A stretch of 64,000 nt of DNA from an uncultured Acidobacteriota bacterium. GTDB lineage: Bacteria; Acidobacteriota; Terriglobia; UBA7540. Positions within the stretch are counted from its first letter, which is position 1. Every line of letters starts with the position of its first letter. Below, in pieces: positions 8,053-53,918 of this stretch. A program made the translations under genes and the position numbers. Under the pieces are notes generated by a model. It did no database searches, was not told the origin of the DNA, and saw only the letters and a list, made by a program, of their open reading frames with translations. The stretch covers positions 832,001-896,000 of the forward strand of contig CAWDSK010000006.1 in the NCBI GenBank assembly GCA_963804995.1, read 5' to 3'.

Positions 8053-8366
8053 TGTGTCTCGCCAAAATCTCATCCGCGCAGGGAATGGCGCGAGTCGCTT
8101 TGTGCCTCGGATTGAAAAGAGAACCTGGACTCGGTTAAGAGTTGCTTTGAGGAGCGCGAAGGTTCTCTTTAGGCGAAGACCTGGGCAGATGCGGCGTACT
8201 TATATAAGAATGGGCGAAAAGTTGGCCCGGATCAGGCAGCCCGATCGTAACGATGATGCAGCCCGCCAAGTCGATCCTGAGATAGGATGCGCCCCGAGGC
8301 TGTGGAGCGAATTCTGTGGTCGGGGGTTCCCTTCCTCAACCCAAGGTGCGTGCGGTCTTCGTGGTA
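8053..8366 (-). mobile_element. Right end of IS481-like (rve integrase) element, truncated by LSR element
   Basis: Terminal TGTGTCTCGCCAAAATCTC (same as 31132); minus-strand translation YHEDRTHLGLRKGTP...RLGGLHHRYDRAA*. Confidence 0.8.
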
Positions 8367-8708
8367 CAACTCGACAACTCAACACCCATAGTACTGAATC
8401 TCGAGAAGTCTTTTACCCGTGGCATCCGTGGTACGGTCGTTCGGTCTGGACTTATGAAACTCTCGTCAAGAATAGGCAAGCGGTATATCGGTGCGGCATC
8501 GAGGAGAGCCCGGATGCTCGGTGCTTGGACGTGCCGCAATGGATGTTTGATTCTGCAACCTGCTGTCGGATGCGTAAGATGGCAGTTCCCACGGTGTCCT
8601 GCGAAGCATTGCTGGATTTGAAGGACCTGCTTCGAGGTGCCCCCCAGGTCAGCCCAGAGGTTGTGCTACAAGCTCAGCATCATTCCTTGCTAGTCCCAGG
8701 AGGTGCTG

Positions 8709-8900
8709 ATGCGAACGTCAGAGAGCCGACCGACAGCCAATCAATTCAAATTGTTTCATCCGCCCCACCTGAGTCCGTCCTGGCAGAGACTGCCTCAGGA
8801 AATCCAGCAGAAGACCCTGAAGCTGCTGGCGCAACTGCTGCGCGAGCACTTAAGCCCGGTCCTCGCCTCCGGCCATCAGAAGGAGGCGCGGAATGAGTGA
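8709..8900 (+). CDS. Small accessory protein of LSR element
   Basis: GGAGG RBS; PSWQRLPQEIQQKTLKLLAQLL; overlaps the recombinase start. Confidence 0.6.
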   Translation: MRTSESRPTANQFKLFHPPHLSPSWQRLPQEIQQKTLKLLAQLLREHLSPVLASGHQKEARNE

Positions 8901-9153
8901 CAAGATCAAAACGCAGCATCTGGAACGCAAGGCGATCCTGTATGTTCGTCAGTCGTCGGCTTATCAGGTCAGCCATAACCTGGAAAGCCAGAAGTTACAG
9001 TATGCCATGCAGGAACGCCTCGAACAGCTGGGCTGGCGCGAAATCGAAGTGGTGGATGAAGACCTCGGCCGGTCCGCGGCCGGGACGGTGACGCGCGCCG
9101 GTTTCGAACGCATGGTGGCGGAGGTGTGTTTGGGCAAGGTCGGAGCGGTGGCC
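8893..9153 (+). pseudogene. Large serine recombinase, N-terminal fragment
   Basis: AILYVRQSS catalytic motif, DEDLGRSA, RAGFERMVAEVCLGKVGAV; truncated at IS terminal TGT. Confidence 0.9.
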
Positions 9154-10470
9154 TGTCCCTACCAGTAATCTCGTTCAATTTGAAATGATTGATCTTATCG
9201 AGGGCTCTTGTTAACCTTCGTGGCCCATGTTTACTCCTCTCCTTTGCGCCTTTGTCAGCATCCGATCGTGGTTTCGATCTCGTGCAGCGCTGCAGGTTGA
9301 AATCCTCGCTCTTCGCCACCAGCTATCTGTCCTTAAGAGGTCGCAGCACGGCCGACTTCGTCTGAACTCCGCGGACCGACTGCTCTGGGTTTGGCTGTCC
9401 TGCTTCTGGTCGCAATGGCGCGCGGCGCTGCTCCTCATAAAGCCCGAGACAGTTATTGCCTGGCATCGAAGAGGATTCCGCTGGTATTGGAGAGGGAAGA
9501 GTCGGCAGGGCGAACCGGGGATGCCTACCCTCGATTTGGAAGTTCGGGGGTTGATCCGCAAGATGAGTTTGGCGAACCCGCTCTGGGGAGCACCACGGAT
9601 CCACGGTGAGATCCTTAAACTTGGCATCGAGGTTTCCCAGGCCACCGTGGCCAAGTACATGGTTCGTCAGCGAAAATCGCCCTCCCAAACCTGGCGTACT
9701 TTCCTGAATAACCACGCTAAGCAGTTGGTCTCCACGGACTTCTTCGTCGTGCCGACCGTCACTTTTCGGGTTCTATATGTGTTTATCGTCTTGGCGCACG
9801 AGAGGCGGCGTCTCCTCCATTTCAACGTTACCCCGCATCCCACCTCGGAAGGGACGGCGCGACAAATGGCCGAGGCCTTCCCGTGGGAAACTGCTCCCCG
9901 CTACCTGCTGCATGACCGCGATGCAATTTATGGAGATTCTTTTCGTGAAAGAGTTCGGGGCATGGGTATAAAGGAAGTCCTGACGGCCCCGCAATCGCCC
10001 TGGCAAAATCCTTACGCCGAGCGACTGGTGGGCTCCATTCGGCGCGAGTGCCTGGATCATATCGTGATTCTCAACGAGAGGTCTCTGCGGCGATTTCTCA
10101 AATCCTATTTCGATTATTACCTGCGTTCGCGCACTCACCTCGCGCTCGGCAAGGACCCTCCTGAATCGCGCCCCGCGGAGTCTCCGGAGCTTGGTCCCAT
10201 AGTCGAACTTCCTGAAGTCGGTGGACTTCATCACCGATACGAGCGGCGCGCGGGTTGAACAGGCGATCTGTTCGGAAGATTCTCAGTCTCCTTCCGCTAC
10301 GGGCGACCTGAGGTGCTCAACAGGAAGCCCCGCTAATTTGGGTTCCTCCGATTCGTACACTTGGACACATCGGCTATGAACTGAGCGCGATAAGGAATTC
10401 GCCGAACGGGAAGTACTAACTCCCCTCGGCCCTTCCTTCGCTTGGAGTGATCGAGTTTTTGGTATCGACA
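9154..10470 (+). mobile_element. IS481/IS3-like (rve) insertion sequence, complete
   Basis: Ends TGTCCCTACCAGTAATCTCG and CGAGTTTTTGGTATCGACA (imperfect IRs, TGT...ACA); no target duplication because the flanks are unrelated fragments. Confidence 0.85.
9227..10258 (+). CDS. Integrase-core (rve) DDE transposase
   Basis: WGAPRIHGE HTH, STDFF, LLHDRD, PWQNPYAERLVGSIRRECLD, GGLHHRY. Confidence 0.93.
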   Translation: MFTPLLCAFVSIRSWFRSRAALQVEILALRHQLSVLKRSQHGRLRLNSADRLLWVWLSCFWSQWRAALLLIKPETVIAWHRRGFRWYWRGKSRQGEPGMPTLDLEVRGLIRKMSLANPLWGAPRIHGEILKLGIEVSQATVAKYMVRQRKSPSQTWRTFLNNHAKQLVSTDFFVVPTVTFRVLYVFIVLAHERRRLLHFNVTPHPTSEGTARQMAEAFPWETAPRYLLHDRDAIYGDSFRERVRGMGIKEVLTAPQSPWQNPYAERLVGSIRRECLDHIVILNERSLRRFLKSYFDYYLRSRTHLALGKDPPESRPAESPELGPIVELPEVGGLHHRYERRAG

Positions 10471-10676
10471 GGTGTTGCCTTCCCCACATGTACACAGGGT
10501 CGACGCCCCGTATCCCCGATTTTCGAAGCTCAATACCCAGCCCACTGATGCCTCTGTTTACGCTTCAACGGCCACCTCGCGATGGCCGCCGCAAAACTCG
10601 AGGTCAGGATGGTTCGCTACTCCTTTCCTGCAGGACTCTTTCATTCCCGACTACATGCCGGTTTATCCCGGCGCAC
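10471..10676 (-). mobile_element. Group II intron 5' fragment (domain I only)
   Basis: GTGCGCCGGGATAAACCGGCA start identical to the intron at 2341; colinear similarity to 2140-2341; truncated by the IS end at 10470. Confidence 0.85.
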
Positions 10677-10772
10677 GTACAAGATCGGTACAACTTGAGC
10701 GTTCCGAATGTGCATTTGCGTGCTTTTTGGTCGCCAACCGTGCCGCAAAATCAACGAGTTACCTTATTGCTG

Positions 10773-10816
10773 CCAGATTTCTAATCCGAGGGTCGTGGAT
10801 TCCTCCACCCCTACCA
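10773..10816 (+). pseudogene. Degenerate tRNA 3' fragment (Arg-UCU-like), possible att scar
   Basis: CCAGA-TTTCTAA-TCCGA-GGGTC ... CCCCTACCA; T-loop damaged. Confidence 0.35.
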
Positions 10817-10841
10817 ATTTTTCAAGCAGTTAGTGGAAGGC

Positions 10842-11348
10842 ACTTTCCCGATGGCTACATTTTCCGGCTACTTTAAGGGGCAGAAGGTTTGTGCTGCTTG
10901 AGTTGTGAACCTGCTACCTCAAGACTCTTCAAGATTAGCTCTGAAGCCAGCAACTGAGCCTGATCGCTAGAGCCGCCGAGCCCAACACTCGTGCCTTCGT
11001 TCACGTGACCCAGGCGATCCATCCGCGTCTTCACGTCCACCCCTTTGTGCTGCCCCCAGCGCGTTCCGACTGTGCGAAACCCCGTTGAGGAACCTACTGG
11101 ATTGAAAGTTCTAACCGACCGTATGGATCGATTGGCCGCAAGTTGCGCGGTGCGTTTCCGGGCTGTGCTTCCTGCGTTGTTGAGGCAAACACCGTCCCGC
11201 AGGCTGTGCTTCCATTATGCTTCCAATAAACGGGCTGAAAAAGCGGAGCAGAACCAAGCTAATATGCGTTGAATCAACGAGATGGCCTTGGGCGACTACA
11301 GCCCTGAAAAGGCTGGCGTCGGCGGTTCAACTCCGTCCCGCGGCACCA
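10842..11348 (+). repeat. 507-bp direct repeat, copy 1 (tyrosine-integrase C-terminal remnant plus tRNA-Phe 3' fragment)
   Basis: Near-identical, indel-free match to 54367-54873; minus strand encodes DVKTRMDRLGHVNEGT (LGH box). Confidence 0.92.
11299..11348 (+). pseudogene. tRNA-Phe(GAA) 3' fragment, att-like
   Basis: CAGCC-CTGAAAA-GGCTG anticodon arm, GGCGG-TTCAACT-CCGTC T arm, CCGCGGC-ACCA end; no D arm. Confidence 0.8.
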
Positions 11349-11602
11349 TATCTGCTATGTTAGCAATGGCTTCCAACCATCAAAGTCCCTCAAGAACACC
11401 TTTCGCGCCGCCTGTGCTTGCCCTCACTGTAATCAGAGTGATCGCCGTAAGTTTTGCGATATCAAGAAGGTGGAACTTGGTAGAGCGCAGCCCAGAAGGG
11501 CTTGGCGTCGACCGATTGGCGAACTACCTCGGACCATTTAACTAATGAGCACAGGAATTTGCAGCTGCCGTTCGCCAGAATCTCAGCCCCGACGAAACCT
11601 AG

Positions 11603-12500
11603 CCCGGATTTCTCACCAATAAATTGAAAAGGCTGTCTCTTTCTGGCATAAGTGCTCTTGGGAGAAAAACTTGTGCCGAAGAAGGAGGACAGCCTTTTGC
11701 GCACACAGTGTAACCAAGAATCGTTTGAATTTCATCCTCTGGCGGGGCGTGAGGTGAGGGGTGAGTTTGACGGCGGAGCGATCACGAGCGACGCGGGCGG
11801 TCTGCTGCTGCGCGAGGTGGAGAAGCGCACAGGGATCCTCGCGCGCTTTGCGGCCTGCTTTCGGGACTATCGGAAGCCCGAGCAGGTCGAGCACGGGGTG
11901 AGGGAGTTGGTAGCGCAGCGGGGGTATGCCCTGGCCCTGGGCTACGAAGACTTGAACGATCACGACCAACTGCGCGGAGACCCGCTGCTGGCGGTATTGG
12001 CCGAGAAGCCTGATCCGACGGGAAAGAGCCGGGCGAGAGAGCGGGACCGGGGGAAGGCGCTGGCGGGCAAGAGCACGTTGAATCGGTTAGAGCTGACCAA
12101 GGCAGAGGTTGAGAAGAAGGAGCGGTACAAGAAGATCGTGATCGACACGGACGCCGTGGATCGCCTCTGGTGAAGATTTTTCTGGAGGCGTACGCGACGC
12201 CGCCGGCCTAGATCGTGCTGGACCTGGACGCCACGGACGACCCGGTGCACGGGAATCAGGAAGGGCGATTCTTCCACGGTTACTACAGGCATTACTGCTA
12301 TCTGCCGCTGTACATTTTCTGCGGGGACTTTTTGCTGTGCGCGCGACTGCGGACTTCCAACATCGATGGCTCGGCTGGATGCGTGGAAGAACTAAAACGG
12401 ATCATGGCACAGATTCGCCAAGCTTGGCCGGAAGTGAAGATCACGCTGCGAGGCGACTCGGGATTTTGTCGGGAAGAGCTGATGGCCTGGTGTGAGCAAG
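11603..12500 (+). pseudogene. IS1380-family transposase remnant
   Basis: FDGGAITSDAGGLLL, GYEDLNDHD, LDLDATDDPVHGNQEGRFFHGYY, RGDSGFCRE; frameshift near 12170, stop, 3' truncation. Confidence 0.88.
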
Positions 12501-12574
12501 CGGGCCGCAGCATCGACCTGCGAGTTAGTTTGTCCATAGACTCCTCCCATACGAGGATGGATAAGCTCTTAGTA

Positions 12575-14512
12575 TTACTTGATCAAGTGATTCATGGCTG
12601 CAAATTGTCGCCGTATAGTCTCCACAAGCTCGGAGTGATCAGGAATCTGTTCGAGCAGTTGTGCTACGGTTGCTTTGGCCTCGGCAGCTCGCACGCGATC
12701 CTCTTCCGGAGTAGGGTCCTGATAGAACGTGTCCCCCTCCCCCCAACCCGACGCCATTTCCTGATACCCGGGAAACTTTAGCCACCCCGCGTATAACTTG
12801 GCCAATTGCGGATCATTACGTCGGTAGAGCTTCCGGATATAAAGTTCGGCGTACTCGTCAATCGTGAGACGCGGGTTCCAACTGAACTCTTCCAACGCCT
12901 GAACTGCGTTGTCCCAACTCTTGAAAGCGACGACCCGGATTTCCATACACTCTTGTCCGCGTTCATTTAGGATCGAAGCGCCATATTTGTAAGCGAAATC
13001 TGGAAAGCGCGAAATCTCGCGGTGGAGTAGATACCACCTGCTGCGTGGAAGATATTCTCGCCGAGATAGCGCTGCCATCATAACTGACCAGTCGATGTCA
13101 ATGAAATTGGGGTAGCGATCCTGATGCTGAACGATATCCCGTGTCCCCCAAGAATCGTATACCCAGAACTCCATATTCGGGTTGTGCCGTTGTCCGACAT
13201 CCACCATAGCAGCAAAGTACCGCTCGAAGATGGCAAAGTGGTTCCCGCGGCAGAGGTGGCAATTACAGACAAGGTAGTCGTTCTCGGAAAACTCGCCTCC
13301 GATTGCATCCAGTTTGGGATAGTGATCGAGCAGGTCTTCGAGATAGCTGCGCCAGAACTGCATCGTCTTCGGTTCAGAGCCGCACACCCAGCTATATTTA
13401 TTGCTAAGCGACTCGTCCCTTGTTCCTCCCAGCACCCCCTCGCCGAACTTTTGGTAATCCTCCCATTTTGGCCCGTCAGGGATGTCATTCGGATTGAAGT
13501 TCTTTCCTGCCAATTCCGGATATCGCTTGACGACCGCGGTCCACTGGTCGGGAAAGTTGATCATCATAAATACGCGGATGCCGCGGCTGTGGGCGTAATC
13601 GATCAACTGGGTCATGAACTCGTGCTTGACGTTTGGATGATAACGGTTGACGAGGTCCGGGAAGCGCTTCGAATCGTATGCAATGCCAAACCCCACACCG
13701 AAAATCCAGGCATTGAGGATGTTGATCTTGTGGGACACCATCCAGTCGACGAAACCACGCCAGTCGTAACCCGAGCCGTCAGGCTTTGCCCATTCCTTTT
13801 CCCACTGGCCTCCTGCATACCAATCCGGACCGCCGAGGTTCGTGGCGATACTTCGGTATCGGAACGCCGGGAGATTCAAGATTGGCGTCAGCTTCGAGTT
13901 TAACGGGCCCACCAGCACGCCGTCACCTTCCTCGTAGAGCCGATCTGACAGCGTCTCAACGCCATACAGAACGCCTAGTGGCGTGTGTGCCGTGAGCGCC
14001 AGCGTGGGTCTTGCCTCGTAGTCACCGGCGTAAATAGCAAATCCTTGCTCCCCAAGATTTTCCGGAATCAACGCCCTCTTCAGGCTGCCTTTATCATGAT
14101 CCTCAAGGGGCACAATCAAGTGTTTTTCCCGCAAGAATTGCGCAGCCACAAGGTTTTCAGCGAAGGTGCCGACGAGAATTCTGCCACTACTGCCCGAGGA
14201 TTGGCTCCCCGAGACGAAAGGCACTTTCACTCCGGCGACCTCGGCAATGACGGATTGAAGCCGAGAAGCGGCATGCTGGGACATCTCTGACGCCCCAGCC
14301 GGAACGACAATCTCACAGGTCGGCTTCCTTGCCTTGGCCACTAGGAAGTTGACCTGTCCTGCGTGCGTCGGTGGCGAACCCCCGACCAGTTGGGAAGCCC
14401 TCTCGTTAGCAGCTCCTGCGTATGTTGAGCCAAGAAGCGTCGCAGTCACACCACCAAATGCAGCGCCACACGATTCCTTCAAGAACAATCGGCGGTCCAG
14501 TCGTGGCTTCAT
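12575..14512 (-). CDS. Tat-exported putative glycoside hydrolase (GH20/GH67-like N-terminal domain plus TIM barrel)
   Basis: DRRLFLK Tat motif; LGEQGFAI...GVLYGVETL; PAFRYRSI; AAGGAG RBS. Confidence 0.65.
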   Translation of the reverse strand: MKPRLDRRLFLKESCGAAFGGVTATLLGSTYAGAANERASQLVGGSPPTHAGQVNFLVAKARKPTCEIVVPAGASEMSQHAASRLQSVIAEVAGVKVPFVSGSQSSGSSGRILVGTFAENLVAAQFLREKHLIVPLEDHDKGSLKRALIPENLGEQGFAIYAGDYEARPTLALTAHTPLGVLYGVETLSDRLYEEGDGVLVGPLNSKLTPILNLPAFRYRSIATNLGGPDWYAGGQWEKEWAKPDGSGYDWRGFVDWMVSHKINILNAWIFGVGFGIAYDSKRFPDLVNRYHPNVKHEFMTQLIDYAHSRGIRVFMMINFPDQWTAVVKRYPELAGKNFNPNDIPDGPKWEDYQKFGEGVLGGTRDESLSNKYSWVCGSEPKTMQFWRSYLEDLLDHYPKLDAIGGEFSENDYLVCNCHLCRGNHFAIFERYFAAMVDVGQRHNPNMEFWVYDSWGTRDIVQHQDRYPNFIDIDWSVMMAALSRREYLPRSRWYLLHREISRFPDFAYKYGASILNERGQECMEIRVVAFKSWDNAVQALEEFSWNPRLTIDEYAELYIRKLYRRNDPQLAKLYAGWLKFPGYQEMASGWGEGDTFYQDPTPEEDRVRAAEAKATVAQLLEQIPDHSELVETIRRQFAAMNHLIK

Positions 14513-14584
14513 CGATCCGGTGCTCCTTTCGGTAGAATATTTAAAGACATAATGTTTCACAAACTCTCTATCGCTGTTTCCGGC

Positions 14585-19771: not shown

Positions 19772-19775
19772 CTCG

Positions 19776-32403: not shown

Positions 32404-32447
32404 TAAGATCAAAACCAAATTGAACAACAAGGAGAGGAGGAACTGTG

Positions 32448-33338
32448 ATGCGGAACCTACTAATTAAATGGGGCGTGTTTGTACTCGGGGTAGTCGTCAT
32501 GCTGGCCTCCACGGTTTTAGTCCCCGCGCAAGGGGGTAAACCTATAAAGGTCTTCATGACCACCGACATGGAGGGTGTAGACGGTGTTTTTGATTTCGAC
32601 CTCCAGTGCGAACCCCAGAAGAGCCTGCTTTGGGAAGAGTCGCACAAGCTGCTGACCGATGAAGTGAATGCGGCGGTCAAGGGGCTGTACGAGGGTGGCG
32701 CAACAGAAGTATTCATATATGACGGCCACGACAGCGGTCGCAGTCTGTCCGTGCTTGACATTGAACCTCGGGCACGGCTCCTGCAAGGGCGTCCGATCTC
32801 CCCTACTGCGGAGCTCGATGCTTCCTTCAACGCCTTTGTCTTCATTGGGCAGCATGCCATGGCGGGCGCGGAAAAGGGGGTGCTTACACATACCGAATCA
32901 TTTGACGTCCAGAATGTCTTGGTCAACGGCCGGCCTACGGGCGAGATAGGTCTTTTCGTGATGCTGGCGGGTCAATTGGGTGTCCCCGCGATCATGCTTT
33001 CCGGTGATACGGCTGCCTGCCGAGAGTTTCATGAACTGGTCCCGGAAGGCGAATGCGCGGAGGTAAAGAAGGGCGTTAGCCGCACCGCCGCCTGGATGCT
33101 TTCCCACTCCGCGGCCTGCGCTTTGATTAACGAAACGGCGCGGCGAGCCATGCAGCGCCTACCCCAGATCAAGCCCTATAAGCTCGCCGGACCTGTGGAA
33201 GTGAAAGTTGAGCACACGGTCCAAGGCACGCCACTTAACCCTCCGCACGAAGGAATCGAACGGTTGAACGACCGAACCTGGGTGTTTCGAGCAAAAGACA
33301 TGCTCGAGATGTGTTCGAAATATTTAGGTTGCACCTAA
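32448..33338 (+). CDS. M55-family D-aminopeptidase (DppA-like) with signal peptide
   Basis: TDMEGV, YDGH, IGQHAMAG, LTHT, GEIG, LSGD motifs. Confidence 0.9.
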   Translation: MRNLLIKWGVFVLGVVVMLASTVLVPAQGGKPIKVFMTTDMEGVDGVFDFDLQCEPQKSLLWEESHKLLTDEVNAAVKGLYEGGATEVFIYDGHDSGRSLSVLDIEPRARLLQGRPISPTAELDASFNAFVFIGQHAMAGAEKGVLTHTESFDVQNVLVNGRPTGEIGLFVMLAGQLGVPAIMLSGDTAACREFHELVPEGECAEVKKGVSRTAAWMLSHSAACALINETARRAMQRLPQIKPYKLAGPVEVKVEHTVQGTPLNPPHEGIERLNDRTWVFRAKDMLEMCSKYLGCT

Positions 33339-37469: not shown

Positions 37470-38478
37470 TAGAGCGTTTCCATAAATAATATAGCTTGCA
37501 AAGAGCGGACTTCTGTGGCAGAGTGCGCTCATGCGAGCCATACCGATTCCCCTCCGCAAGCGCATTCTGGAACTCTATGAACGCGGCCGGAGTACGCAGG
37601 AGATCGCGCAGTTTTCGGGCTTCTGTATCGCGGCGGTGCGTCGTGTGCGCCAGCGGTTTGGCGAGCGCGGCACGCTGGAACCCCGGACGTATTTATGTGG
37701 ACGCAAGACGTTGCTCACCGAAGAGCGAAAACAACGTCTGCACCAACTTCTATCCGGACAGCCCGACGCCACGCTGGCCGAGTTGGGCGCGGGCTTGGAT
37801 CGCCCCTTCCGCACTTCCACGATCGATCTCTGGCTGCGGCGGCTGGGTTGGAAGTTTAAAAAAAACTCTGGCCGCCGCCGAACAAGAACGTCCCAACGTC
37901 GCCGAAAAAAGGGCGCGCTGGCATGAGGAGTTGGCTGCCGAGCCCACGGCCCATCTGGTGTTTGTGGACGAAAGCGGAGCCAACACCAAGATGACGCGCC
38001 TGCGGGGCCGTGCGCTGGGTGGGCAAAGACTGTTGGCGCGCCTTCCGCACGGACACTATCAGACCAGCACCTTGATCTCCGGCATTCGTCTGGAGGGTCC
38101 CTGCGCTCCTTGGCTTTTTGAAGGCCCCATGAACGGTGAAATGTTTTTGGCGTGGGTGACGCAAGGGCTCGCGCCTACCCTGCGCCCTGGCGAGGTGGTG
38201 ATTCTGGATAATCTGGCCACGCACAAAATCCGGGGAGTCCGGGAAGCCCTCGAAGCCGCCGGCGCCCGACTGCTCTATCTGCCCCCCTATTCGCCGGACT
38301 TCAATCCCATCGAGCCCATGTGGAGCAAGATCAAACAAATCCTGCGCGGCCACGCTCCCCGGACCGACGAACAACTGCTGCGTGCAGCGAAAAAGGCCTT
38401 CCAGTCCATTTCCGTCGCAGACTGCAAAGGCTTCTTTTTTAGTGCCCAATACGCTACATTATAAATGGAAATGCTCTA
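37470..38478 (+). mobile_element. IS630-family element
   Basis: IRs TAGAGCGTTTCCAT / ATGGAAATGCTCTA in CTAG context (TA target). Confidence 0.92.
37531..38464 (+). CDS. IS630 transposase, two ORFs joined by -1 frameshift at A8 run (37858-37865)
   Basis: HTH ORF then FVDESG, ILDNL, LPPYSPDFNPIE; TTTAAAAAAAAC slippery site. Confidence 0.88.
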
Positions 38479-38987: not shown

Positions 38988-39917
38988 TTAGAAGACACTG
39001 CACTTCAGCCAAGCATCGACGAGATCCTTTCCCCGGTATACATAGGTCCGGTCGTCCAACCGCTCAACGCCTTCGCGCTCCCGGTAAACCGGCATGCCTT
39101 GTACTGTGAACTCAACCTTGAATTCCACTGGCCCGGAGACCTTGTAAGGTTTGAACTCTGGGAGTCGTTCTACAGCGCGGCGCGCCTTTTCGCGAATCAA
39201 TGAATACGCGGCCTGATCCGAGAGCGAAATTCCTCCCGTCCGGCTTAAACCTGTCTTCACCGCTGCACACTCGGCATTGGGGACCAGTTGTTGCAGTTCC
39301 TGGCAAGCTGCCGCGTCCCCGGCAAGCATGATTACCGGTACTCCGAAGTAGCCCGCAAACGCCGCTGTGGACCCGATTTCACCGATGATCTGGTTATTCA
39401 ACCACATATTTTGAATCTCAAAAGCATAGCTGTGGCTTATGACTCCGTTTTTGGCGCCTGCCATCGGATGTTGGCCGATGAAGATCATGGCGCTGTAAGA
39501 AGAGTCTAACCCAAGAGTGGCCGGGATACCTACACCCTGAAGTAATCGTGCTCGCGGGTCAATTGTTTCCGTTGAAAGTGAGCGACTACTGTCATGGAGA
39601 TCGGCCACAATGACTTCCGTCGCGCCACCAGCACACAGCCCCTCAACAGCGGCGTTGACCTCACCCGTCAGCAACTTCTGGGACTCTGCCCACCGAGCGC
39701 TCTTGAACGGTTGACACTGGTCTTCCCAGTTGAAAATGCCGTGTACACCTTCCATATCGGTGACCATGTAAACCTTTACCGACTTCGCTTGTGCTGTAGA
39801 CGTTGAGGGCGGTTCCAAAAGACCGCTCGGGTTAGTGGCACCGGCGGCAAGACCAACTCCGGCTACTGCGCTCGTTTTAAAAAATTCGCGTCGGTTTACA
39901 GCGGATTCCTCAGACAT
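38988..39917 (-). CDS. M55-family D-aminopeptidase, Tat-exported
   Basis: NRREFFK Tat motif; TDMEGV, ADLH, IGQHPMAG, SHSY, GEIG. Confidence 0.9.
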   Translation of the reverse strand: MSEESAVNRREFFKTSAVAGVGLAAGATNPSGLLEPPSTSTAQAKSVKVYMVTDMEGVHGIFNWEDQCQPFKSARWAESQKLLTGEVNAAVEGLCAGGATEVIVADLHDSSRSLSTETIDPRARLLQGVGIPATLGLDSSYSAMIFIGQHPMAGAKNGVISHSYAFEIQNMWLNNQIIGEIGSTAAFAGYFGVPVIMLAGDAAACQELQQLVPNAECAAVKTGLSRTGGISLSDQAAYSLIREKARRAVERLPEFKPYKVSGPVEFKVEFTVQGMPVYREREGVERLDDRTYVYRGKDLVDAWLKCSVF

Positions 39918-40082
39918 ATGTTCTCCTCCCTTTGCTGTACTCATCCATTATTGTGGTTTCGAGGCGTCATCTGCGCCCGGTTCGCTGAACCGGTGACGGC
40001 AGGGATCCATCCAACAAACGCTGGCCACGGAGCGAGTTACATTGTATCTCCTTTCCCACCTCCCGCTCGAGATCGGACCATC

Positions 40083-40790: not shown

Positions 40791-41675
40791 TTACTCGGGC
40801 AGGTACTTTAACCAGGCCTCGAGAAAGTTCTTCCCGTGGAAGACCCAGGTTCGCTCATCCAATCGTTCGACTCCGTTGCCGGTCCGCCAGCGGCTGGTTC
40901 CACGTGTAGTGATTTCCACCTTCATGTCCACCGCCCCCGACATCTTGTAGGGCTTCATTTCTCCGAGCCGTTCCATCGCCCGCTGTGCCTTCTCGCGAAT
41001 CAGCTTGCAAGCAGTAGGGTGCGGCAGCATATACCCCGCTGTGCGACCGACGCCGGACTTCACTTCTGCACACTCGGCTTGCGGCGCAGTATCGTGTAGT
41101 TCGCGGCAGGCAGCCGCGTCACCGGAAAGCATTGCGACCGGAATTCCAAACTCTCCCGCCAGCATGTTGGTGGTGCCGATTTCACCCTCCGGCGTACCAT
41201 TCACCCACATGTTCTGGATTCCCAGCGAACTATAGCTGTGGCTCAGAATTCCATCCTTAGCTCCGGCCATGGCGTGCTGGCCAATGAAAACGACAGCGCT
41301 ATAAGATGAATCAAGCCCCATGGTCGGTGGAATGGGGCTGCCTGTAAGCAATCTACATCTCGGATTGATATCAAGCACGGAGAGCGTTTGTGAGCCGTCG
41401 TGCCCGTCGTACACAATGACCTCCGTCGCGCCGCCGGCGAATAACCCATCCACCGCCGCGTTGATTTCGCCGGTCAACAGGTTGCGTGATTCTTCAAATC
41501 GCCTGCTACGGCCTGGCATGCACTGCAAATCACTGTCGAAAATTCCGCTCACGCCTTCCATGTCGGTAACCACGAAGACCTTCTTCGGTAGCGTGGCCTG
41601 CCCAAAACCCGAGCCTACTAATACCGAACTCATCAATAGGCAATATCCGGCGAAGATCCTTTTCTCCTTCGACAT
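40791..41675 (-). CDS. M55-family D-aminopeptidase with signal peptide
   Basis: TDMEGV, YDGH, IGQHAMAG, SHSY, GEIG, LSGD. Confidence 0.9.
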   Translation of the reverse strand: MSKEKRIFAGYCLLMSSVLVGSGFGQATLPKKVFVVTDMEGVSGIFDSDLQCMPGRSRRFEESRNLLTGEINAAVDGLFAGGATEVIVYDGHDGSQTLSVLDINPRCRLLTGSPIPPTMGLDSSYSAVVFIGQHAMAGAKDGILSHSYSSLGIQNMWVNGTPEGEIGTTNMLAGEFGIPVAMLSGDAAACRELHDTAPQAECAEVKSGVGRTAGYMLPHPTACKLIREKAQRAMERLGEMKPYKMSGAVDMKVEITTRGTSRWRTGNGVERLDERTWVFHGKNFLEAWLKYLPE

Positions 41676-41995
41676 GGTTTTGTCACCTCGTTTCAGTGGA
41701 ATGTTGACGCGACTCTGGTTTCCCCAAAAATCGTTTGCCCGCCGCCCAGCCGGGGAAGTGTCAGCGCCACTGCTACGGCTCATTGGCCAAATCTTTACTT
41801 CTCGGGCTCACAACGCGCACGTATTAGGCGCCAACGGCAGCACATTGTACATCTGTTTTTTTCTTCCATAGATGCGCTGTTGACCGGTCCCAGTCACTTC
41901 AGACACAATAAGTGCGCAAGTGGCGTTTGGCTCCGCCGGTGACCGACACCAGCCGGGACCACTTTCCTCTGAACCAGCAGTCATGGCAGAGACAG

Positions 41996-45497: not shown

Positions 45498-48400
45498 TCA
45501 GAAGGTAAACTTCATAGCGAACTGTAAAACGCGCGGCGTCCATGCCCCTGACACCTCACCCATGCCATAATTGTTGGCGATGCCGCTGCACGGAGATCCA
45601 AAAGGCGTACTGCCGCCACAGCCAGCGTTAATGTTATTCCACTGTGTGTGATTGAAGGTGTTAAACGTTTCGAAGCGGAATTGTAGCGATGAGTGTTCGC
45701 CTCGCGCCCAAGGCAATTGAAAGTCTTTGAGCAGGGCTAAGTCCCAGTTATTTCGGCCCGGTCCAGTGAGGGCGTTCCGTCCCATATAGCCGAACATCCC
45801 CGGTTCACCGCTGGCGCTGAACTGGGAGAGATTCGGCTGGCCGACACTATTTGGATCATACCACATCTGAGTAGGTCCGAATTGAGGGTCGTTGTAAGTA
45901 GATTTCCTGATCTTGACCGGGGCGAGCGAGTTGCAACGCATTCCTTCACTGATACCGTTGCTCATTCCGTCTACACCGCAGCCGAAGTTCACCGGCTCCC
46001 CGCTGTAGAAAGTCGTAATCCCACTCACCGCCCAGCCACCCAGCGCCGTCTTTACTGTGGCCTTAGAGGCATTCTTGAAGAACGGCAGGTCGTACATGTA
46101 ATTCATCACCAGAGCGTGGGTACGGTTAAAGTCCGACGTGGCAAACCAGCGGTTTAGGTTGGACTCGTCCACATACAAATAGCCGTTTCCGCTCTCGTTG
46201 TCAATCCCGTGAGCATATGTGTAGGCCGCCTCGAAGCTCACGCCATGTCCAAACCTATGGCGCAAGTCCGCTTGCAAAGAGTTGTAATGAGAGGAGGCTG
46301 CATATTCGTAATAGTCGATCTGGCTGTAAGCGCGATACGGAAAAAAGAAGATGTTCGGCTGGATCTGGTTCATCAGGATGGACTGGACATCACAGTTGCC
46401 CGAGACATCGCATCCCGTTGTCCCGGCTAGGGCTGGAACGTTCATAGTTCCTACACCATCAGGTATGCGGGTGAGGTTCGAGGTGCGGCTCAGGTGCCGC
46501 CCCAAAGTCCCAACCCATCCTATGCTCAGAACAGTATCCGATGGAAACTCGTGCTGCACCGTGAGATTGTACTGCTGCGACGACTGCCAAGGTCCGGAGG
46601 ATGGATAGGCGGATACATACACCGGAGCTAGAGGGCCCTGCGCTAAGCTCTCGTAACCGTTAATGTTGTACCCGACAGGTTTAAATGACGTTGGCGGATT
46701 TCCAATTCCCACTTCCGAATTCCCGTAGGAAGACAAGTTGTCATAGAAAATGCCATATCCCCCACGGATAGAGGTCTTGCCACTGCCGGTAGGATCAAGG
46801 GCAAACCCGAGGCGCGGCGTAAACATATTCCGCGGCACGTTCCGGCAACCTACGGGAATCCCTGTCGACCCGCATTGTACCAAGCCGTTCCCGAACATCG
46901 TGTAGTTATATCCGGTACCTTGGACTATGTTTCCGTCGATATCGAGCTGAGCTTGTTTCGCCGGATCGTACAGTGCAGGGAAGAAATCCGCGTCGTTGGT
47001 GGGAATGGAGAAATCGTGTTCGGGTGTCGAAGCGTAGTAACGCAACCCCAGGTTGAGGGTCAACCTGCGGTTAACCTTCCAGTCATCCTGGATATAAGGC
47101 TCGTATTGCTGCTTGCGCTCGCGCGTCCAGCCCCATCCCCCCACCGGGACGCCACCAGAAACGGCGGTGCGCTCCGTGTACGAATAGATCCGGCCCAAAA
47201 ACATATCGGCTAAACCATTCTTCGTCGTGAGAGGTCCTCCGCCCGTAAAGACGTAGTTCCCCATCGGGTCGGCATCCGACCCCGGGCCCGAAGTGTGATA
47301 GATCAAAGCCTGCAACCCAAACTTAAGGGTGTGTCTACCCACCGTCCAGGCCACGTTGTCTCTCAACGTATTCACGGGGAACCACTGGCGATAGTTGGTC
47401 AAATGCACGGCCATGGTAAAATGGAAGGGCGTGCCCCCAGAAACCTTGATTCCAGGCAGATAGGGGATCGCAGCGTTGGGAGCGAAGAAGTTTCCCGCGG
47501 TCCAGTTGGAGGGCTTGGTGATCGATCCTGAGGGAGACGTAGGGCTGACCAAAGGAGTGTAAATCTGATCCGTGCGAGAGTACCCATAGATGAACTCGTT
47601 CATCAGGTTGGGCTTGAAGGTGTGGACCAGGTGCAGCCAAGCCATCGGAGTCGGAATCGACCTGTGCGTCTCTACGGTGTCGTAAGTGTTGGAAGAATAT
47701 AGGGCCGGGGCGACGATCTTGGTCCACGACTTGTGTGAGTACTTGACGAAAAGTCTAGTATTGTCACCGATATTCTGATCCACACGCGCGCTGATTTCCA
47801 GCAAATCCGCCGGCACCTTGATAGAACTCACGTAACTGTCAACGCCGTTATTGGGAAGAGGAACGAACGCATCGAGCATCGGCTTTGCGTTGGGATCGAT
47901 AGGCACAGTGTCCCCTGGGAACGGCTGGCCGGTGGCAGGATTTATGGGTAACCTGCAGCCGGAAGCAACCACGGCGTTGTAATTGGCAGACATTGGGTCG
48001 CATTCACTGAAATCCCCCTGCCGCATCCGCAGACTCGGCACACCGCTGGGGCCAATTTCCTTCCCGTCACGATACTTCGCCCAGTACTGGGAATAGTAGA
48101 AAAAAGTCTTCGACTTATCCGTGTTGTAATGGCCGGGAATATAGACCGGCCCGCCGAGGGTGAAGCCGAAAGTGTTAGCTTGCAAGGGGGCCTTTGGAGC
48201 GTTACAAGGTCCGGCAGGGTTTCCGCCACAGTCTGCTTGCACATTTAAGCTGCTCCAAGGTTCTCGGTTAATAAAAAAATCATTGGCGTTGAGGGCTTGG
48301 TTCTTGACGAATTCGAACGCCGTGCCGTGAAAGTCCTTCGTCCCAGACTTCGTGACGACGTTCAATCTGGGCTGCGCCCCGTGAGCCCAGATCTGCGCCA

Positions 48401-49140
48401 TAGTTGGCGGTGGAGACCCGGAACTCGGCAATGGATTCGATGCTCGGAAACTCCACCAGGGTAACGCCGCCGCTGCTATTATCCTCGGCGCTCTGGCCGT
48501 TGAGATTCCAATTGGTGGAATCCTCCCGCAACCCGTTGAAGGACATGTAAGCTCTGTAGCCGTGGCCGATATGCGAAAGGTCTGCACTATTATCGGGGCT
48601 TGCCCCGGGAACCAGGAAGCTAAGCTGCTGAAATTGGCGCCCGGCTAGGGCCAGGGTGACGATTTGACTTCCTGTCACCACGTCGGAAACGGATCCGCTC
48701 TCCGTTTCCACTTTCGTGACGTTCCCAGCGACGGTGATTTGCTGCGTCACCTGACCGAGCGTGAGCTGCATGTCTAACCGGAGCGTCTGGTCGACTTCAA
48801 GCCTGATCCCTGTGCGCACCAACTTCTGGAAACCCGAAACCTCGGCGCTGACGACGTAGTTGCCGATGGGAACCTTATCGGCCCTATATTCTCCCGCTGA
48901 ATTCGTCACCGTATTGCGAACAAAGCCTCGGTCGGGATTTGAAACCACAATCTTGGCTCCTGGCACGATGGCACCTGTGGAGTCCGTCACTATGCCCACA
49001 ATCGTGGCTTGATCCTGCGCCCAAGCCGCGACCGGCGAGAGCAAAACAAGGGCCAATATGAGCAAGCCCAGCTTCCCGATAACGTCTGTCGGAGATAGAT
49101 ACCCCTCTCTCTTGTCAAACCGTTGAGATTTACGCTCCAT
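45498..49140 (-). pseudogene. TonB-dependent receptor, Oar-like, +1 frameshift near 48364
   Basis: N-part (48280-49140) and C-part join at GAAQ/NVVTKSGT; C-terminal PRVLQFAMKFTF. Confidence 0.88.
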
Positions 49141-50543
49141 AAATCACTCTCCTTTACTCTTGTGGGTTCTTCTCAGGAGCGACGCTTATAAATTAACTGC
49201 CATGAGTACTGCAAAACTAGTGGAGAAGGCCTTCCATCGAAAACCCCAAATCCCGCGACCGTCAATTCTTCGACCCATTCCTTCCAGACCCGACGACCAA
49301 CACCGTCGCGGCCCATAGAGCGGATGCACAAACATCCTTGTGAACTGGACGGATTCACTCGCTCCTTCCTTGCGTCAACCTTCTTATTCGGTTAAATGGC
49401 GGGGAATTTGGGAAACTGGCAGGCTCCTCCTTTTTCTGAGGATTCCGCGTTCCTGAAATGAACGGCATTTACCACTAAAGGCGCGGTCTGTCAAGACAAA
49501 TCTTGGGATTTTGCAGCCCGTGATAGAACACGTTGAGGGCTCGCAGGTAAGTCTCTGCTTTCGCAGCAAAGGAGCTAAGTCGGATGAGAATGGGAAAGGG
49601 GTCGACCTAAATTCCGGAAGTTGCACGCATGGCGAAAGTCGGCGTGACAACCGCTTCGCGAGTGATCAACGGTTCGGATCTCACTTGTCCCTACCAATAA
49701 TCTCGTTCATCTTGAAATCATTGATCTTCTCAGGAGACGTTGTTAGCCTTGCTCGTCCATGTTTACTCCACTCCTTTGCGCATTGGTTAGCATCCGAGCT
49801 TGGTTTCGAAGTTGAGCAGTGCTGCAAATGGAGAACCTTGCCCTGCGCCACCAACTGATAGTTCTTAAGAGGTCTCAGCGTGGCCGGCTTCGTCTGGACT
49901 CCGCCGACCGATGGCTTTGGATTTGGCTCGCTCGCTTCTGGTCGAACTGGCGCTCGGCGTTGCTCATCGTCAAGCCCGAAACGGTAATCGCCTGGCATCG
50001 CCAGGGATTCCGCTGGTATTGGAGATGGAAGAGTCGGCACGGCGAGCCGGGAAGGCCTACCATCGAGTTGGAGGTTCGGGAGTTGATCCGAAAGATGAGT
50101 CTGGCGAACCCGCTCTGGGGAGCACCCCGTATTCATGGGGAATTGCTCAAGCTCGGAATCCAAGTGTCACAAGCCACAGTCGCGAAGTACATGGCTCGGC
50201 AACGAAGACCGCCATCCCAGACGTGGCGTACTTTCCTTGAGAACCACGTGCAGCAGTTGGTTGCGACGGACTTCTTCGTCGTGCCGACCGTCACTTTTCG
50301 ACTCCTATACGTCTTTATCGTCTTGGCGCACGATAGGAGACGCCTACTCCATTTTAACGTCACCGCCCATCCCACTTCCGAATGGACGGCGCAACAGCTG
50401 GTTGAGGCGTTCCCTTGGGACAGCGCGCCACGCTACCTGCTCCACGATCGCGACTCGATTTATGAAGGGGCATTCCGTCAACGAGTTCGGAGGATGGCGA
50501 TTCAGGAAGTTCTGACGGCCCCCAGATCGCCTTGGCAGAAGGC

Positions 50544-52637
50544 TTATGCTTCATACTGCACCTCATTGGTATGATTCGAGGGGTCCTCGAAGAATCGCTG
50601 CCTGGCAGCGAGCTTCGTCCCTTGCATCTTGCGCGGCGGATCATCGCCGGGGTGTTCATATAAACACTCGTTTTTCTCGTTGTAGGCTTGAGCTCTTAAC
50701 AGACCATGGTCCCGCCAGACTTTCACCCACCCGGTGGAGATGCCGAGCAGCTTAGCCATCTCTTGCAGGGTCAACAGGCCGGCTCCGCGTAGGCGAGTGT
50801 AACCGCTCTTCAAGGCATAGTTACGCCGTATGCGCGCGACGATGTGAGGGCTGAAGGGCCTGCCTTCGCCCGAGAGCCAGCCGCGTTCATTCAGCAGGCT
50901 AGCGATCTGCCGATCGGTACGTTGATCCAGGAGCCGGTCGATCTCCGCCACCACCTCCGGCTTGGTGGTGCGCTGTTTCCAGGCATTGAGGGGGATGGGC
51001 AAATGCAGGGTCTTTGTAGCTCCCCCCTTGAAGCGGATCTGAAGCGTGATCTCATGGTTGCGGGTCAACGTGACGTCTTCCAATAGAAGGCGGACCATAC
51101 GCTTCCGTTCTCGATGTGGCGTTTTCGCATCGCGCCACAGCCGAGGGAAGTCTGTGGCCAGGGCAAAAATCTGAGCGCGTTCCTCTTCCCGACACAACCC
51201 ACGGTCGACCTGACGTTGACGTTGATACTCTTGCTGAGCCTCTCCCAGAGCACGCAGCTTGTGGTTCCAGTCGGCCTCGAGCGAATCCGCCACGAGCCGG
51301 TTGTCGGGATCGCAACGCAAGTAGCGCCGCTCGGCCAGCTCCGCCTCATACCGGGCGCGCTCAACTTGGGTTTGGCGCAACCGATCCGCTTCTTCCCAAC
51401 GAGACTGAAGTTCTTGCTGCACGCTCAGCGCCACCTCCAGGGCTAACGGAGTGACCACTTCGATCAGCAGTTCCCCGATGGCCTGGTCGATACCCGCTCC
51501 AGGAACCGTCTGGCAGATGGTTTGAGCGTGTTCGATACCGTACCGCTGACACACATAATGGGGGGCCAGGCGTGACCGGTGAACATGATAACGCACGGTC
51601 ATCCGATTCCCACAGCGGCCACAGATCACTAATCCCTGCAGAAGCGCTGGACCTTCCCGCGGAGGGCTTTGACGACGGTCGGGACCCCAAGCTTGCGCGG
51701 ATTCCCGTAACCGCCGCTGATTGCTCTCATATTCTTCCCAGGAGAGGTAACCCGCATGGGCCCCAGGAAGGCAAGTGTCCCACTCCTCGCGAGGCAACCA
51801 CTTCACCGTCACGCCACCCTCCAGCTTCTTGCGCGTCTGACTCCGGCCAAAGACGTAGGCCCCGGCATACCGAGGATTGTGCAAAACGCGCAGGACATGG
51901 CTGTGAACAAGTTCCACCCATACCAACTCTCCTTGGTGGGGCCCCGCCCGCAGGCGGCGGGGAAACAGCAGCCCCTGCTGGCGAAAGGCCTTCACCGTGG
52001 CCAGGGCGGATCCCGTACGACGGAAGGTTTCAAACAAGAGTCGAAGGCCCTGTTGCACCTGCTGGTCCGGATCGAGAACGAGTTGCCCCGAGCCGTTATA
52101 GACCAAGCCGACCGGAGGTGGGATCTCCAACTCACCGCGCCGAGCTTTGCTGAGGATTCCGCCTCGCAACCGGGCTCGCAGCACGTGCAGTTCCGCCTCG
52201 CTCATCGTGCCTTTCAGCCCCAACAGCAGGCGGTCATTAAAGTGCGCCGGGTCGTAGATGCCATCTTCATCCAAAATGAGCGTGTCGGTGAGCGCGCAGA
52301 TCTCCAGCAGTCGATGCCAGTCCGTGGAGTTGCGCGCCAGGCGCGACACCTCGAGACCCAGAACGATCCCTGCTCGCCCCATCCCCACTTCACTCACCAA
52401 CCTTTGAAATCCCTCTCGGTCTACCGCCGAAGCTCCCGACTGGCCTTGATCGTTGTCGATCACGATGATCCGTTCCAAAGGCCAGCCCAGGGCCACGGCC
52501 TGTTGGCGTAACGCGTACTGGCGCTGGGTGCTCTCGGTATTCTCAAAGACCTGCCGAAGCGTGGACTGCCGGATATACAGGTAGGCGTCGCGTTTCAAAT
52601 GGTGGGCTTGAACCTTCTGCGGCATTTCGGTTCTCAT
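50544..52637 (-). CDS. Large serine recombinase (resolvase, recombinase and Zn-ribbon domains)
   Basis: AYLYIRQST, EVSRLARN, LLQGLVICGRCG, DPDNRLVA. Confidence 0.95.
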   Translation of the reverse strand: MRTEMPQKVQAHHLKRDAYLYIRQSTLRQVFENTESTQRQYALRQQAVALGWPLERIIVIDNDQGQSGASAVDREGFQRLVSEVGMGRAGIVLGLEVSRLARNSTDWHRLLEICALTDTLILDEDGIYDPAHFNDRLLLGLKGTMSEAELHVLRARLRGGILSKARRGELEIPPPVGLVYNGSGQLVLDPDQQVQQGLRLLFETFRRTGSALATVKAFRQQGLLFPRRLRAGPHQGELVWVELVHSHVLRVLHNPRYAGAYVFGRSQTRKKLEGGVTVKWLPREEWDTCLPGAHAGYLSWEEYESNQRRLRESAQAWGPDRRQSPPREGPALLQGLVICGRCGNRMTVRYHVHRSRLAPHYVCQRYGIEHAQTICQTVPGAGIDQAIGELLIEVVTPLALEVALSVQQELQSRWEEADRLRQTQVERARYEAELAERRYLRCDPDNRLVADSLEADWNHKLRALGEAQQEYQRQRQVDRGLCREEERAQIFALATDFPRLWRDAKTPHRERKRMVRLLLEDVTLTRNHEITLQIRFKGGATKTLHLPIPLNAWKQRTTKPEVVAEIDRLLDQRTDRQIASLLNERGWLSGEGRPFSPHIVARIRRNYALKSGYTRLRGAGLLTLQEMAKLLGISTGWVKVWRDHGLLRAQAYNEKNECLYEHPGDDPPRKMQGTKLAARQRFFEDPSNHTNEVQYEA

Positions 52638-52939
52638 CCTCTCACCTCCGGCCGACTGTGAAGTACCATGCTCGCCAGAATCGTAACCACTTCCGTGTGC
52701 AGATCGAGAGGAACCCTCTCCTCAGGGCCGGACGGATTCTGGGGTTTCATCGGAATCCCACCCGGCAGGCAGTGGGACCAGGCTTCCATCCAGCCTTTCA
52801 TCCCCTGGCGAATAAACAGCGCCAGGCCCAAGGCTCCGCGCCTGCCGCCTAACTCACCCCGCACTTGTCGCCGGAGTTCCTCATATTGGTTTACGATCCC
52901 CTCCTGGGCCATCAGGGGAGCAACGGGAGGGTCGCTCAA
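52634..52939 (-). CDS. Small accessory protein of LSR element
   Basis: YEELR...GLALFIRQGMKGW; TTGA and ATGA overlaps with neighbours (translational coupling). Confidence 0.7.
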   Translation of the reverse strand: MSDPPVAPLMAQEGIVNQYEELRRQVRGELGGRRGALGLALFIRQGMKGWMEAWSHCLPGGIPMKPQNPSGPEERVPLDLHTEVVTILASMVLHSRPEVRG

Positions 52940-53403
52940 CGTCGTTTTTTTTGCTGCTGCCGAAGCCGGCGCTCCAAGCTGCGAGGATGGACCCGTAGAC
53001 GGAAGGCTTTCTTCACCCGGGCCGCCAGTTCCTCGCTCCGCAAGGAGGGTTCGGCAGCTCGGGCCTGCCGGACGAACTCCATTACCTCGGCCGTGAGCTT
53101 GTGGGCGTGCCGAGGTCCCCGTTTCTGGGGAATCAATCCTGCGAGTCCCCTGGCTACGAAGCCCGCCTGGGCGAGGTAGAAGGAGGGTCTGGAGAAACCA
53201 AAAGCCTCCGCCGCTTGGCTCACCGCTTGGTTTTCGACCCTCACTTGGCGCAGCATCTCGTACTTGACCTGCAGCAAGTCCCGGGGATCGAAGAAGTCGC
53301 TGTCCTGGAACAGGGCGTGGGCCACCTCCTGCGGGCGGGGATTCAAGGTACCTTGGGAGCGCAGGATATGGCGCTTGGCATCGTGGCGTGAGGAAGGGGA
53401 CAT
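52936..53403 (-). CDS. Helix-turn-helix protein of LSR element
   Basis: FFDPRDLLQVKYEMLR, FGFSRPSFY, GLAGLIPQKRGP; GGAGGAG RBS. Confidence 0.85.
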   Translation of the reverse strand: MSPSSRHDAKRHILRSQGTLNPRPQEVAHALFQDSDFFDPRDLLQVKYEMLRQVRVENQAVSQAAEAFGFSRPSFYLAQAGFVARGLAGLIPQKRGPRHAHKLTAEVMEFVRQARAAEPSLRSEELAARVKKAFRLRVHPRSLERRLRQQQKKRR

Positions 53404-53444
53404 GGGCTCCTCCGGAGCAAATCCGGCAAACGAGTGTAATGTTA

Positions 53445-53473
53445 ATTATATACATTCTCTTGCTCCCTGTCAA
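53445..53473 (-). promoter_or_regulatory. Perfect sigma70 consensus promoter for the HTH-accessory-recombinase operon
   Basis: TTGACA-17nt-TATAAT on minus strand. Confidence 0.8.
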
Positions 53474-53623
53474 GCCTTTTCTATCCTCCGACCCGAATTT
53501 GTGTTGCACAATAAGCGGATATTGCACTCACACACCCACCGAAAACTCTGGACTTCGGCTCAAGCTCCGACATAATCCCTTTAACACAAACGGCGTAATT
53601 CCCTTTACAGACCTTCCGGGGCT

Positions 53624-53918
53624 TCAGGACCGTAAACCCTCCACCAAACGCACCAATTCAATCAGGTCCTCAACGCGAAAATACGAGCGGCCTCCCCCTA
53701 TGACCACGAATGGGTCCTCCCCCACGACACTCGTCCACCGCGCCGGTAGCGAGGTCAACTGGCCTCCTTCGTCGTAGAAATACACTCGGTCCTCCCCCCA
53801 GTTCTGGCGGTAGTCCACCCATTCGAATTCACGTTGGAACAGTGGATGGTAAGGGTGAGTTACTCGGAAACGTCGTTTTGAATAGTCTCTATGGTGTGTA
53901 GTTGACAACCTGATCCAA
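53624..53918 (-). CDS. Terminal small protein of LSR element (DUF5372/y4bD-like by recall), 5' end open at element boundary
   Basis: FRVTHPYHPL...WGEDRVYF...SLPARWTS...DPF...GRSYFRVEDL; no RBS plus ATG inside this end of the element. Confidence 0.75.

Follow-up and report, generated by a model that had tools for sequence, protein, structure and literature searches.

What brings two different recombinase-encoding elements, within a single stretch of DNA, into the transposase genes of other mobile elements? The question is raised by 64,000 nucleotides from an uncultured Acidobacteriota bacterium (GenBank assembly GCA_963804995.1, contig CAWDSK010000006.1, positions 832,001 to 896,000; the whole stretch is called the window below). 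The window holds a truncated element near its left end (element 1) and a complete one near its right end (element 2), each with a gene for a large serine recombinase (LSR) and each inside a transposase gene of an insertion sequence (IS). Our answer, to which we assign a probability of roughly 0.8, is that both belong to one widespread family that is moved by its LSR and that uses clade-specific bacterial attachment sites (attB) in conserved catalytic-motif codons of other mobile elements. The members of this family are compact (2.6-3.4 kb) and free of cargo genes. By their choice of host they are parasites of elements that are parasites themselves. Judged from the flanking sequences, the clade of element 2 appears to aim at the motif N/K-x-x-x-E of DDE transposases and that of element 1 at the motif Y-N-x-x-R-x-H.

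A clear picture emerges for element 2 in the source genome. Its flanks at the window locus join into one transposase frame across PWQ|NPYVER, as the initial annotation had proposed, and an empty allele of the interrupted host is found at C6:298577-299605 (identity 99% on one side and 96% on the other). In addition, contigs that lack exactly 3,378 bases, with two ambiguous letters, occur in three of four public metagenome runs. The genome contains four copies of element 2 that are 99.6-100% identical (in protein or DNA comparisons), and all four reside in different rve-type DDE transposase genes, at the same PWQ|N codon. The codon hit is that of an Asn which precedes the catalytic Glu, the third DDE residue, by four positions; the core is the dinucleotide AA. 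Since the four copies occupy four different IS variants, they must have integrated independently. There are 20 sites with this motif in the genome; 4 of the 14 that bear AA are occupied and none of the 6 that do not. One IS subfamily (FESPWQN...YHEDRTH) has been taken by both elements, at different codons and in different copies. Both elements lie antisense to their host gene, also as annotated.

Two other initial observations stood in part. The hosts had been labelled IS481-like; they are indeed of the rve-type DDE class, but the label is loose, as the intact transposase of the window falls below the NCBIfam cut-offs of both IS3 (92 bits, cut-off 160) and IS481 (77 bits, cut-off 224). The host would best be described as an rve-type DDE enzyme between the IS3 and IS481 models. 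The left end of element 2 does resemble the intact motif in the copy near 10005, but we give this likeness no weight because the four sites actually occupied do not share it; mimicry of the target by the element end was rejected on that ground.

The same association is seen in the relatives of element 2. A scan of GTDB yielded 512 of them, and the analysis was done on the best 80 of these 512 loci, among which the four-gene order of the element is maintained. Both ends could be placed in 67 loci, and the dinucleotide is the same at both ends in 66 (65 with AA on the host strand, 1 with CG); in the remaining one, L080, the two differ. The CG core belongs to L066, which is inserted at an Arg codon where its relatives use Asn or Lys, as an exchange of the core with the target would predict; it amounts to a natural core swap. 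A Glu is present four residues past the core codon in 63 of the 66 downstream flanks that are long enough to read. We scanned 53 of 116 flank halves, picked to avoid duplicates: 41 match DDE IS models, 2 (from one locus) match GGDEF and 10 match none. The junction falls at one position per model, namely 313|314 in IS3, 228|229 in IS481, 225-227 in IS21 and 235|236 in ISNCY_2 (IS1202). Moreover, in the single-contig genome G279 all 11 copies, of two element types, sit at the codon four residues before the Glu (E-4), in 5 IS3, 4 IS1202 and 2 IS21 hosts as classed by their motifs. The 8 identical copies on two plasmids of Sinorhizobium fredii NGR234 all do likewise, in 6 IS21 and 2 IS1202 hosts by motif. 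The earlier proposal that conserved codons of IS genes serve as attB with a 2-bp core is borne out by these counts, and the tally of targets among the homologues gives IS transposases at one codon, with a range (IS3, IS21, IS1202 and IS481) wider than the IS481 group alone. Such codons may act as a safe haven for the element.

One could argue that the distribution arises by passenger spread, in which an interrupted IS is moved as a whole by an intact transposase acting in trans. In genome G401 all 7 full matches of one IS3 are occupied, with the IS ends intact and differing outer flanks, and no empty copy of that IS3 is found among the matches listed; in NGR234, two copies agree over at least 1,498 and 940 bases of flank. 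The filling of every IS copy by the element itself would, however, yield the same picture as co-movement. In the source genome, in G279 and in NGR234, one element is found in several unrelated hosts, which requires independent integration. Travel inside the IS ends, as initially suggested, may occur, but we regard spread mainly as a passenger as unlikely.

Element 1 leads to the same generalization by way of a different codon. In the window it is a 787-bp stub, interrupted at 9154 by a third IS, and its far end and the 5' part of its host are missing. The host remnant is 96.5% identical to empty alleles at C6:303974 and C6:364003, and the match ends at 8366, which confirms that the element interrupts an rve-type transposase just before YHEDRTH. 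A 2,632-bp copy on contig C1 retains both ends and has one internal stop in the recombinase; it interrupts another transposase, again at the Y|H position. Contig C5 carries a third copy, which is degenerate. The recombinase fragment is 45% identical to the enzyme of element 2 over 91 amino acids, and the full C1 copy is 35% identical. Element 1 lacks the helix-turn-helix (HTH) gene of element 2, and its first open reading frame (ORF) aligns remotely to DUF5372 (hhalign probability 62%, E 7.6e-5). Its plasmid relatives have an annotated hypothetical coding sequence at the position of the small ORF, and no relative of its enzyme was found among viral contigs. We compared 12 plasmid loci, picked for taxonomic spread from 40 listed among 201 records, with the C1 copy and two matches from the phylum. 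All 13 readable downstream flanks start with Y-[N/H]-x-x-R-x-H after a TA core, and the 11 elements with both ends measure 2,590-2,655 bp. An end motif said to be shared by elements 1 and 2 is conserved in its CAAC/CAAY part, within the attachment (att) arm, but the remainder varies among homologues.

A FastTree phylogeny of 86 recombinases, computed over 653 columns after one short row had been dropped and midpoint-rooted without an outgroup, unites all 54 E-4 elements (support 0.997), with three elements that target TnpB of IS66 nested among them; all 14 Y-N elements form another clade (support 1.0). Element 1 thus belongs to a sister clade of the element 2 family, and target class follows the recombinase tree. 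Small branches are associated with TnpC of IS66 (3 elements) and with the reverse transcriptase (RT) of group II introns (2). Four further elements, which do not form a single clade, are found at the Walker A motif of IstB-like ATPases; one of their hosts is a non-IS helicase-like gene. Single cases involve a tyrosine integrase, IS91, IS5, another site in IS3 and a C-terminal site in IstB. The small-branch targets were read by eye from flank translations, and their family names are our assumption except where the annotation of the record agrees. The family is large: DUF5372 forms 1,084 clusters at E 1e-10 or better, and relatives occur in 448 plasmid records, of which 273 are typed as conjugative. 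As separate observations, in L026 and L072 another recombinase, more distantly related, lies inside the element or next to it, which suggests nesting of family members, and L172 has a second DUF5372-like ORF at 4252-4554 directly after the recombinase, as if ends were joined or elements stood in tandem; its core region does not fit a simple junction.

A number of observations have to be set against this interpretation. Of 66 relatives, just 14 have end repeats of exactly 2 bp; the repeats are 3 bp long in 25 and 4-9 bp in the other 27, and these longer ones can be read as similarity of the target to the element arm beside the core. Three of the 66 flanks (L002, L037 and L080) do not fit; in each, the opposite side carries an IS3 gene, and the locus gives the impression of a rearrangement or a faulty join. 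The flanks of L038, L021 and L023 match nothing identifiable, and the distant relative L169 lies in sense orientation. At the level of DNA, 151 empty sites in the source genome score at least as high as the weakest used site and only 4 of these 151 lie in transposases, while the sites of IS families left out of the training rank, in the median, below some 130 sites of the source genome for IS481-like elements (n=12) and up to some 3,400 for IS3 (n=20), the source genome serving as background for sites from other genomes. Finally, no junction of an excised circle was found among all contigs of the 4 public metagenome runs (assemblies drop rare forms), in a motif scan of one metagenome, in genome G279 or among 267 DUF5372 proteins, blanks that do not show absence. 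The mismatched flanks of some metagenome-assembled loci (L002, L037, L050, L073 and L080) might even be taken to mean that the whole pattern is an assembly artefact or a chance neighbourhood of mobile genes. The codon-exact junctions in finished isolate plasmids refute that reading and the independent empty alleles speak against it as well, so that its probability is practically negligible.

The remaining question is how the codon is found. The base G at +8 is common to all four att arms (0.92, 0.95, 0.77 and 0.64), and in the clade of element 1 the core is followed by CAA in one target arm as well as in the two element arms. Because these features are shared, and because insertions outside IS genes keep AA together with the Glu at +4, DNA reading appears to be involved in target choice. 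The invariant target code consists of AA plus GAR at +11 to +13 alone. A matrix trained without the source genome places its four sites within the top 3-151 of 827,195 AA sites. The pooled code is thus common to the families yet not sufficient, and the rest of the specificity must come from a reading peculiar to each clade, from selection or from a targeting factor.

The last of these would be a protein (DUF5372, the small ORF or the HTH protein) that binds to the transposase of the host or else to its DNA ends or transcription complex, whereupon the recombinase takes a weak AA...GAR site nearby. Such a factor would explain why recombinases that are at least 97% identical use both IS3 and IS1202, or both IS481-like elements and IS1202, why a cluster of 14 at 85% identity or more shares only AA, G+2, GA+11/12 and T+18 among its targets, and why the motif alone leaves hundreds of equal sites. 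The predicted SH3/KOW-like barrel of DUF5372 would be a common interaction module, but the structural matches do not exceed a Z of 5. On the other hand, the off-target insertions, made by a Thermoleophilia element in a diguanylate cyclase (GGDEF) gene and in an unidentified gene (L027 and L028), retain AA and the Glu at +4, and clades with the same gene set aim at unrelated proteins. In fact, a wide matrix (+/-27) trained with kin puts the sites of the source genome in the top 0-2, so that a distributed reading of DNA may suffice. The existence of an added targeting factor is therefore doubtful.

Selection alone would have to act on a loosely specific enzyme, with insertions elsewhere being purged and those that kill a transposase being kept. 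The weak shared motif and the few non-IS targets are in line with this idea. Copies that are 99.6-100% identical must be recent, however, and these are already all in transposases (4/4, 11/11 and 8/8); moreover, neutral DNA should tolerate insertions too, and survival would not fix one codon in a 1-kb gene. Loose specificity plus survival is hence improbable as the sole cause, and the target choice of the family is better pictured as a degenerate DNA reading that may be sharpened by selection.

The organization of the elements indicates what their excision could achieve. On the minus strand, element 2 encodes a DUF5372 protein, an HTH protein that is probably a regulator, a small helical ORF and the LSR. 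The recombinase combines the Resolvase, Recombinase and zinc ribbon domains with a catalytic Ser, and this Ser25 and the cysteines C339/342/363/375 are invariant across 37 recombinase sequences. The predicted fold of DUF5372, an SH3/KOW-like barrel with two helices, has a mean confidence (pLDDT) of 77; fold searches returned generic SH3/KOW matches alone (Z of 5 or less) and no Foldseek match at E 0.001. The model of the small ORF is poor (pTM 0.31), and it had no match in the Atlas. Element 2 had no match among phage records. The DUF5372 frame begins at one end of the element without a start codon, and at the recombinase-side end an ATG or GTG is located 14 (or 11) bases before the core in 73 of 75 elements, accompanied by a Shine-Dalgarno (SD)-like 4-mer in 70 (a loose test, no shuffle control). 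Across the joined ends this start is in frame with DUF5372 in 60 of 62 cases, one of which soon meets a stop. An internal start is present in only 10 of the 54 distinct DUF-side ends, 1 of them with an SD-like motif, and the flank supplies a start in 1 of 40. The clade of element 1 has the same split-gene layout, and in the C1 copy the start codon at the opposite end shares the frame of the first ORF. In either clade, joining of the ends alone thus provides the first gene with a start codon, a feature that the initial annotation did not mention. A sigma-70 promoter precedes the HTH gene in 64 of 78 relatives (at least 10/12 positions), as compared to 0 of 400 control windows. In a circle, the transcript of the HTH operon may pass through the joined ends (attP) into DUF5372, and in the integrated state it may leave the element as antisense RNA over the 5' half of the host.

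The following cycle can be pictured from the layout of the genes and ends. The recombinase would join attP with attB across the 2-bp core; the antisense insertion would knock out the host transposase, and excision would restore it exactly. The joining of the ends would complete DUF5372, so that the excised form alone would give rise to the protein; its most likely role is in re-integration. The circle, the activity of the enzyme and the role of DUF5372 are thus putative. It is tempting to go one step further and to propose that the family has been re-aimed, clade by clade, at catalytic codons of mobile-element enzymes (DDE transposases, IS66, the IstB ATPase, IS91, intron RT and tyrosine integrase), with a circle-only protein that recognizes the victim, and forms a reversible off-switch of the IS and possibly an antisense silencer. 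This extension is tentative, and we do not expect all of it to hold.

Table 1. Features of the two elements, their hosts and the family (window positions unless a contig or locus is given)
Feature	Position (strand)	Remark
Host transposase of rve type, 3' remnant starting at YHEDRTH, with IS end	8053..8366 (-)	target of element 1
TA core of element 1	8365..8366	first two bases of host Tyr codon; same core at both ends of C1 copy
Element 1 stub, DUF-side end	8367..9153 (+)	98.9% identical to 2,632-bp C1 copy
First ORF of element 1, without own start codon	8366..8896 (+)	remote DUF5372-like N-terminal domain
Small ORF of element 1	8709..8900 (+)	overlaps recombinase start (ATGA)
5' fragment of element 1 serine recombinase	8893..9153 (+)	Pfam Resolvase; cut by IS
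Intact rve-type IS	9154..10470 (+)	transposase 9227-10258; empty AA site 10007-10008
5' part of host IS/transposase of element 2 and left IS end	49686..50540 (+)	ORF from 49759, ending ...PWQ
AA core of element 2, recombinase-side end	50539..50540	
Element 2	between cores 50539-50540 and 53917-53918	3,378 bp, one core counted
Large serine recombinase, 697 aa	50544..52637 (-)	Pfam Resolvase, Recombinase, zinc ribbon; C-terminal HTH
Ribosome-binding site and ATG	50552..50564 (-)	14 bases before core; in frame with DUF5372 only once ends are joined
Small conserved helical ORF, about 90-100 aa	52634..52939 (-)	coupled to recombinase start
HTH protein, 155 aa	52936..53403 (-)	resembles DNA-binding N-terminus of IS630/IS481 transposases
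Consensus sigma-70 promoter, 12/12	53445..53473 (-)	serves HTH - small ORF - recombinase
DUF5372 (Y4bD/Y4pK) ORF without own start	53624..53917 (-)	SH3/KOW-like barrel plus helices
AA core of element 2, DUF-side end	53917..53918	
Host transposase of element 2, 3' part (NPYVER...), with right IS end	53917..54366 (+)	
Copies of FESPWQN...YHEDRTH IS subfamily	G000:C6:303974-304396; G000:C5:1174982-1175297	
Distant members of the family	L093/L150, L166, L094, L096, L151, L152, L165, L171-L173, L090-L092, L095, L169, L170	intron RT, IS91, integrase, IS66, IstB/helicase, IS5

The window contains several other traces of mobile DNA. Directly after the intact IS at 9154-10470 lies a 5' fragment of a group II intron (10471-10676, minus strand) with 43 matches in the genome, and a second intron domain match is located at 2086-2306 (minus strand). 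A 514-bp segment is duplicated at 10842-11353 and 54367-54880 (97.7% identical); it terminates in the last 53 bases of a tRNA-Phe gene at C6:762374, and similar remnants are found at C6:815346 and C6:303809. The duplicated segments look like attachment-site scars of islands. Additional transposase genes are a broken DDE_Tnp_1_4 gene (11652-12781), a DDE_3 gene (37496-38464) and a multi-copy IS6-like gene (56848-58305). Three M55 D-aminopeptidase genes occur within 10 kb (32445-33338, 38988-39944 and 40791-41783).

The family offers a mechanism for the nested IS clusters on symbiosis and catabolic plasmids, and it explains why many IS3, IS21 and IS1202 genes look like fragments and why DUF5372 is mis-annotated with variable N-termini. 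A serine recombinase that tracks a protein motif across IS families with little DNA in common provides a direct test case of how much specificity can come from degenerate reading. In addition, so large a family represents many recombinase-attB pairs with natural re-targeting.

The closest known system is the repeat of S. fredii NGR234 (y4bA-D / y4pH-K), to whose family element 2 fits: the order DUF5372 - HTH - small ORF - recombinase, in about 3.3 kb and inside other ISs, is the same. The NGR234 repeat is 3,320 bp long, has the same core and a recombinase 54.6% identical to that of element 2, and its plasmid copies occupy the E-4 codon of IS21 or IS1202 transposases. We take this repeat to be NGRIS-4. 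According to the abstract of Perret et al. (1997, J Bacteriol), all nine NGRIS-4 copies had reportedly transposed into other ISs; it is said to have been presented there as an IS, without a recombinase mechanism, a codon-level target, a split gene or a wider family. Our literature search, outside which most subscription papers and ISfinder lay, turned up no account of the codon rule, of the clades or of a split gene. One related paper names other NGRIS elements alone (PMC10970691).

Other systems share single properties with the family. The RIT elements are recombinase elements of about 3.5 kb without cargo, one type of which lies in a transposase gene, but they encode three tyrosine recombinases and the section concerned gives no codon-level rule (PMC3414803). 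The natural target of the group II intron RmInt1 is an IS, ISRm2011-2; it differs in its RNA-based retrohoming, in its use of one IS family and in that the intron can splice out (PMC1802570). The serine transposases of IS607 carry a DNA-binding domain N-terminal to the catalytic domain (PMC4058570, PMC6188088), and assignment to this type was rejected, as Pfam places the catalytic domain of the element 2 enzyme at residues 18-169 and an HTH at its C-terminus. Durrant et al. described LSRs with conserved coding-sequence targets and degenerate motifs around a dinucleotide core; by a term search of the supplement, transposases were 6 of 1,069 targets and not enriched, and DUF4368 was present in 63% of the multi-targeting clade (PMC10083194). 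That domain is absent from the Pfam matches of element 2. Finally, Tn4451/Tn4453 (TnpX) and Tn6104 are moved by an LSR and show a 2-bp direct repeat that is found at the ends and also in the circle and the empty site, and the Tn4451/Tn6104 type carries mobilisation (Mob) and cargo genes, with 21 ORFs in Tn6104 (PMC3158075). Element 2 has four ORFs, none of them Mob and none cargo, and a mobilisable transposon of this type was rejected as an identification. The elements described here likewise combine an LSR with a 2-bp core, but they do so without Mob or cargo genes, aim at the catalytic motifs of other elements and split a gene at attP.

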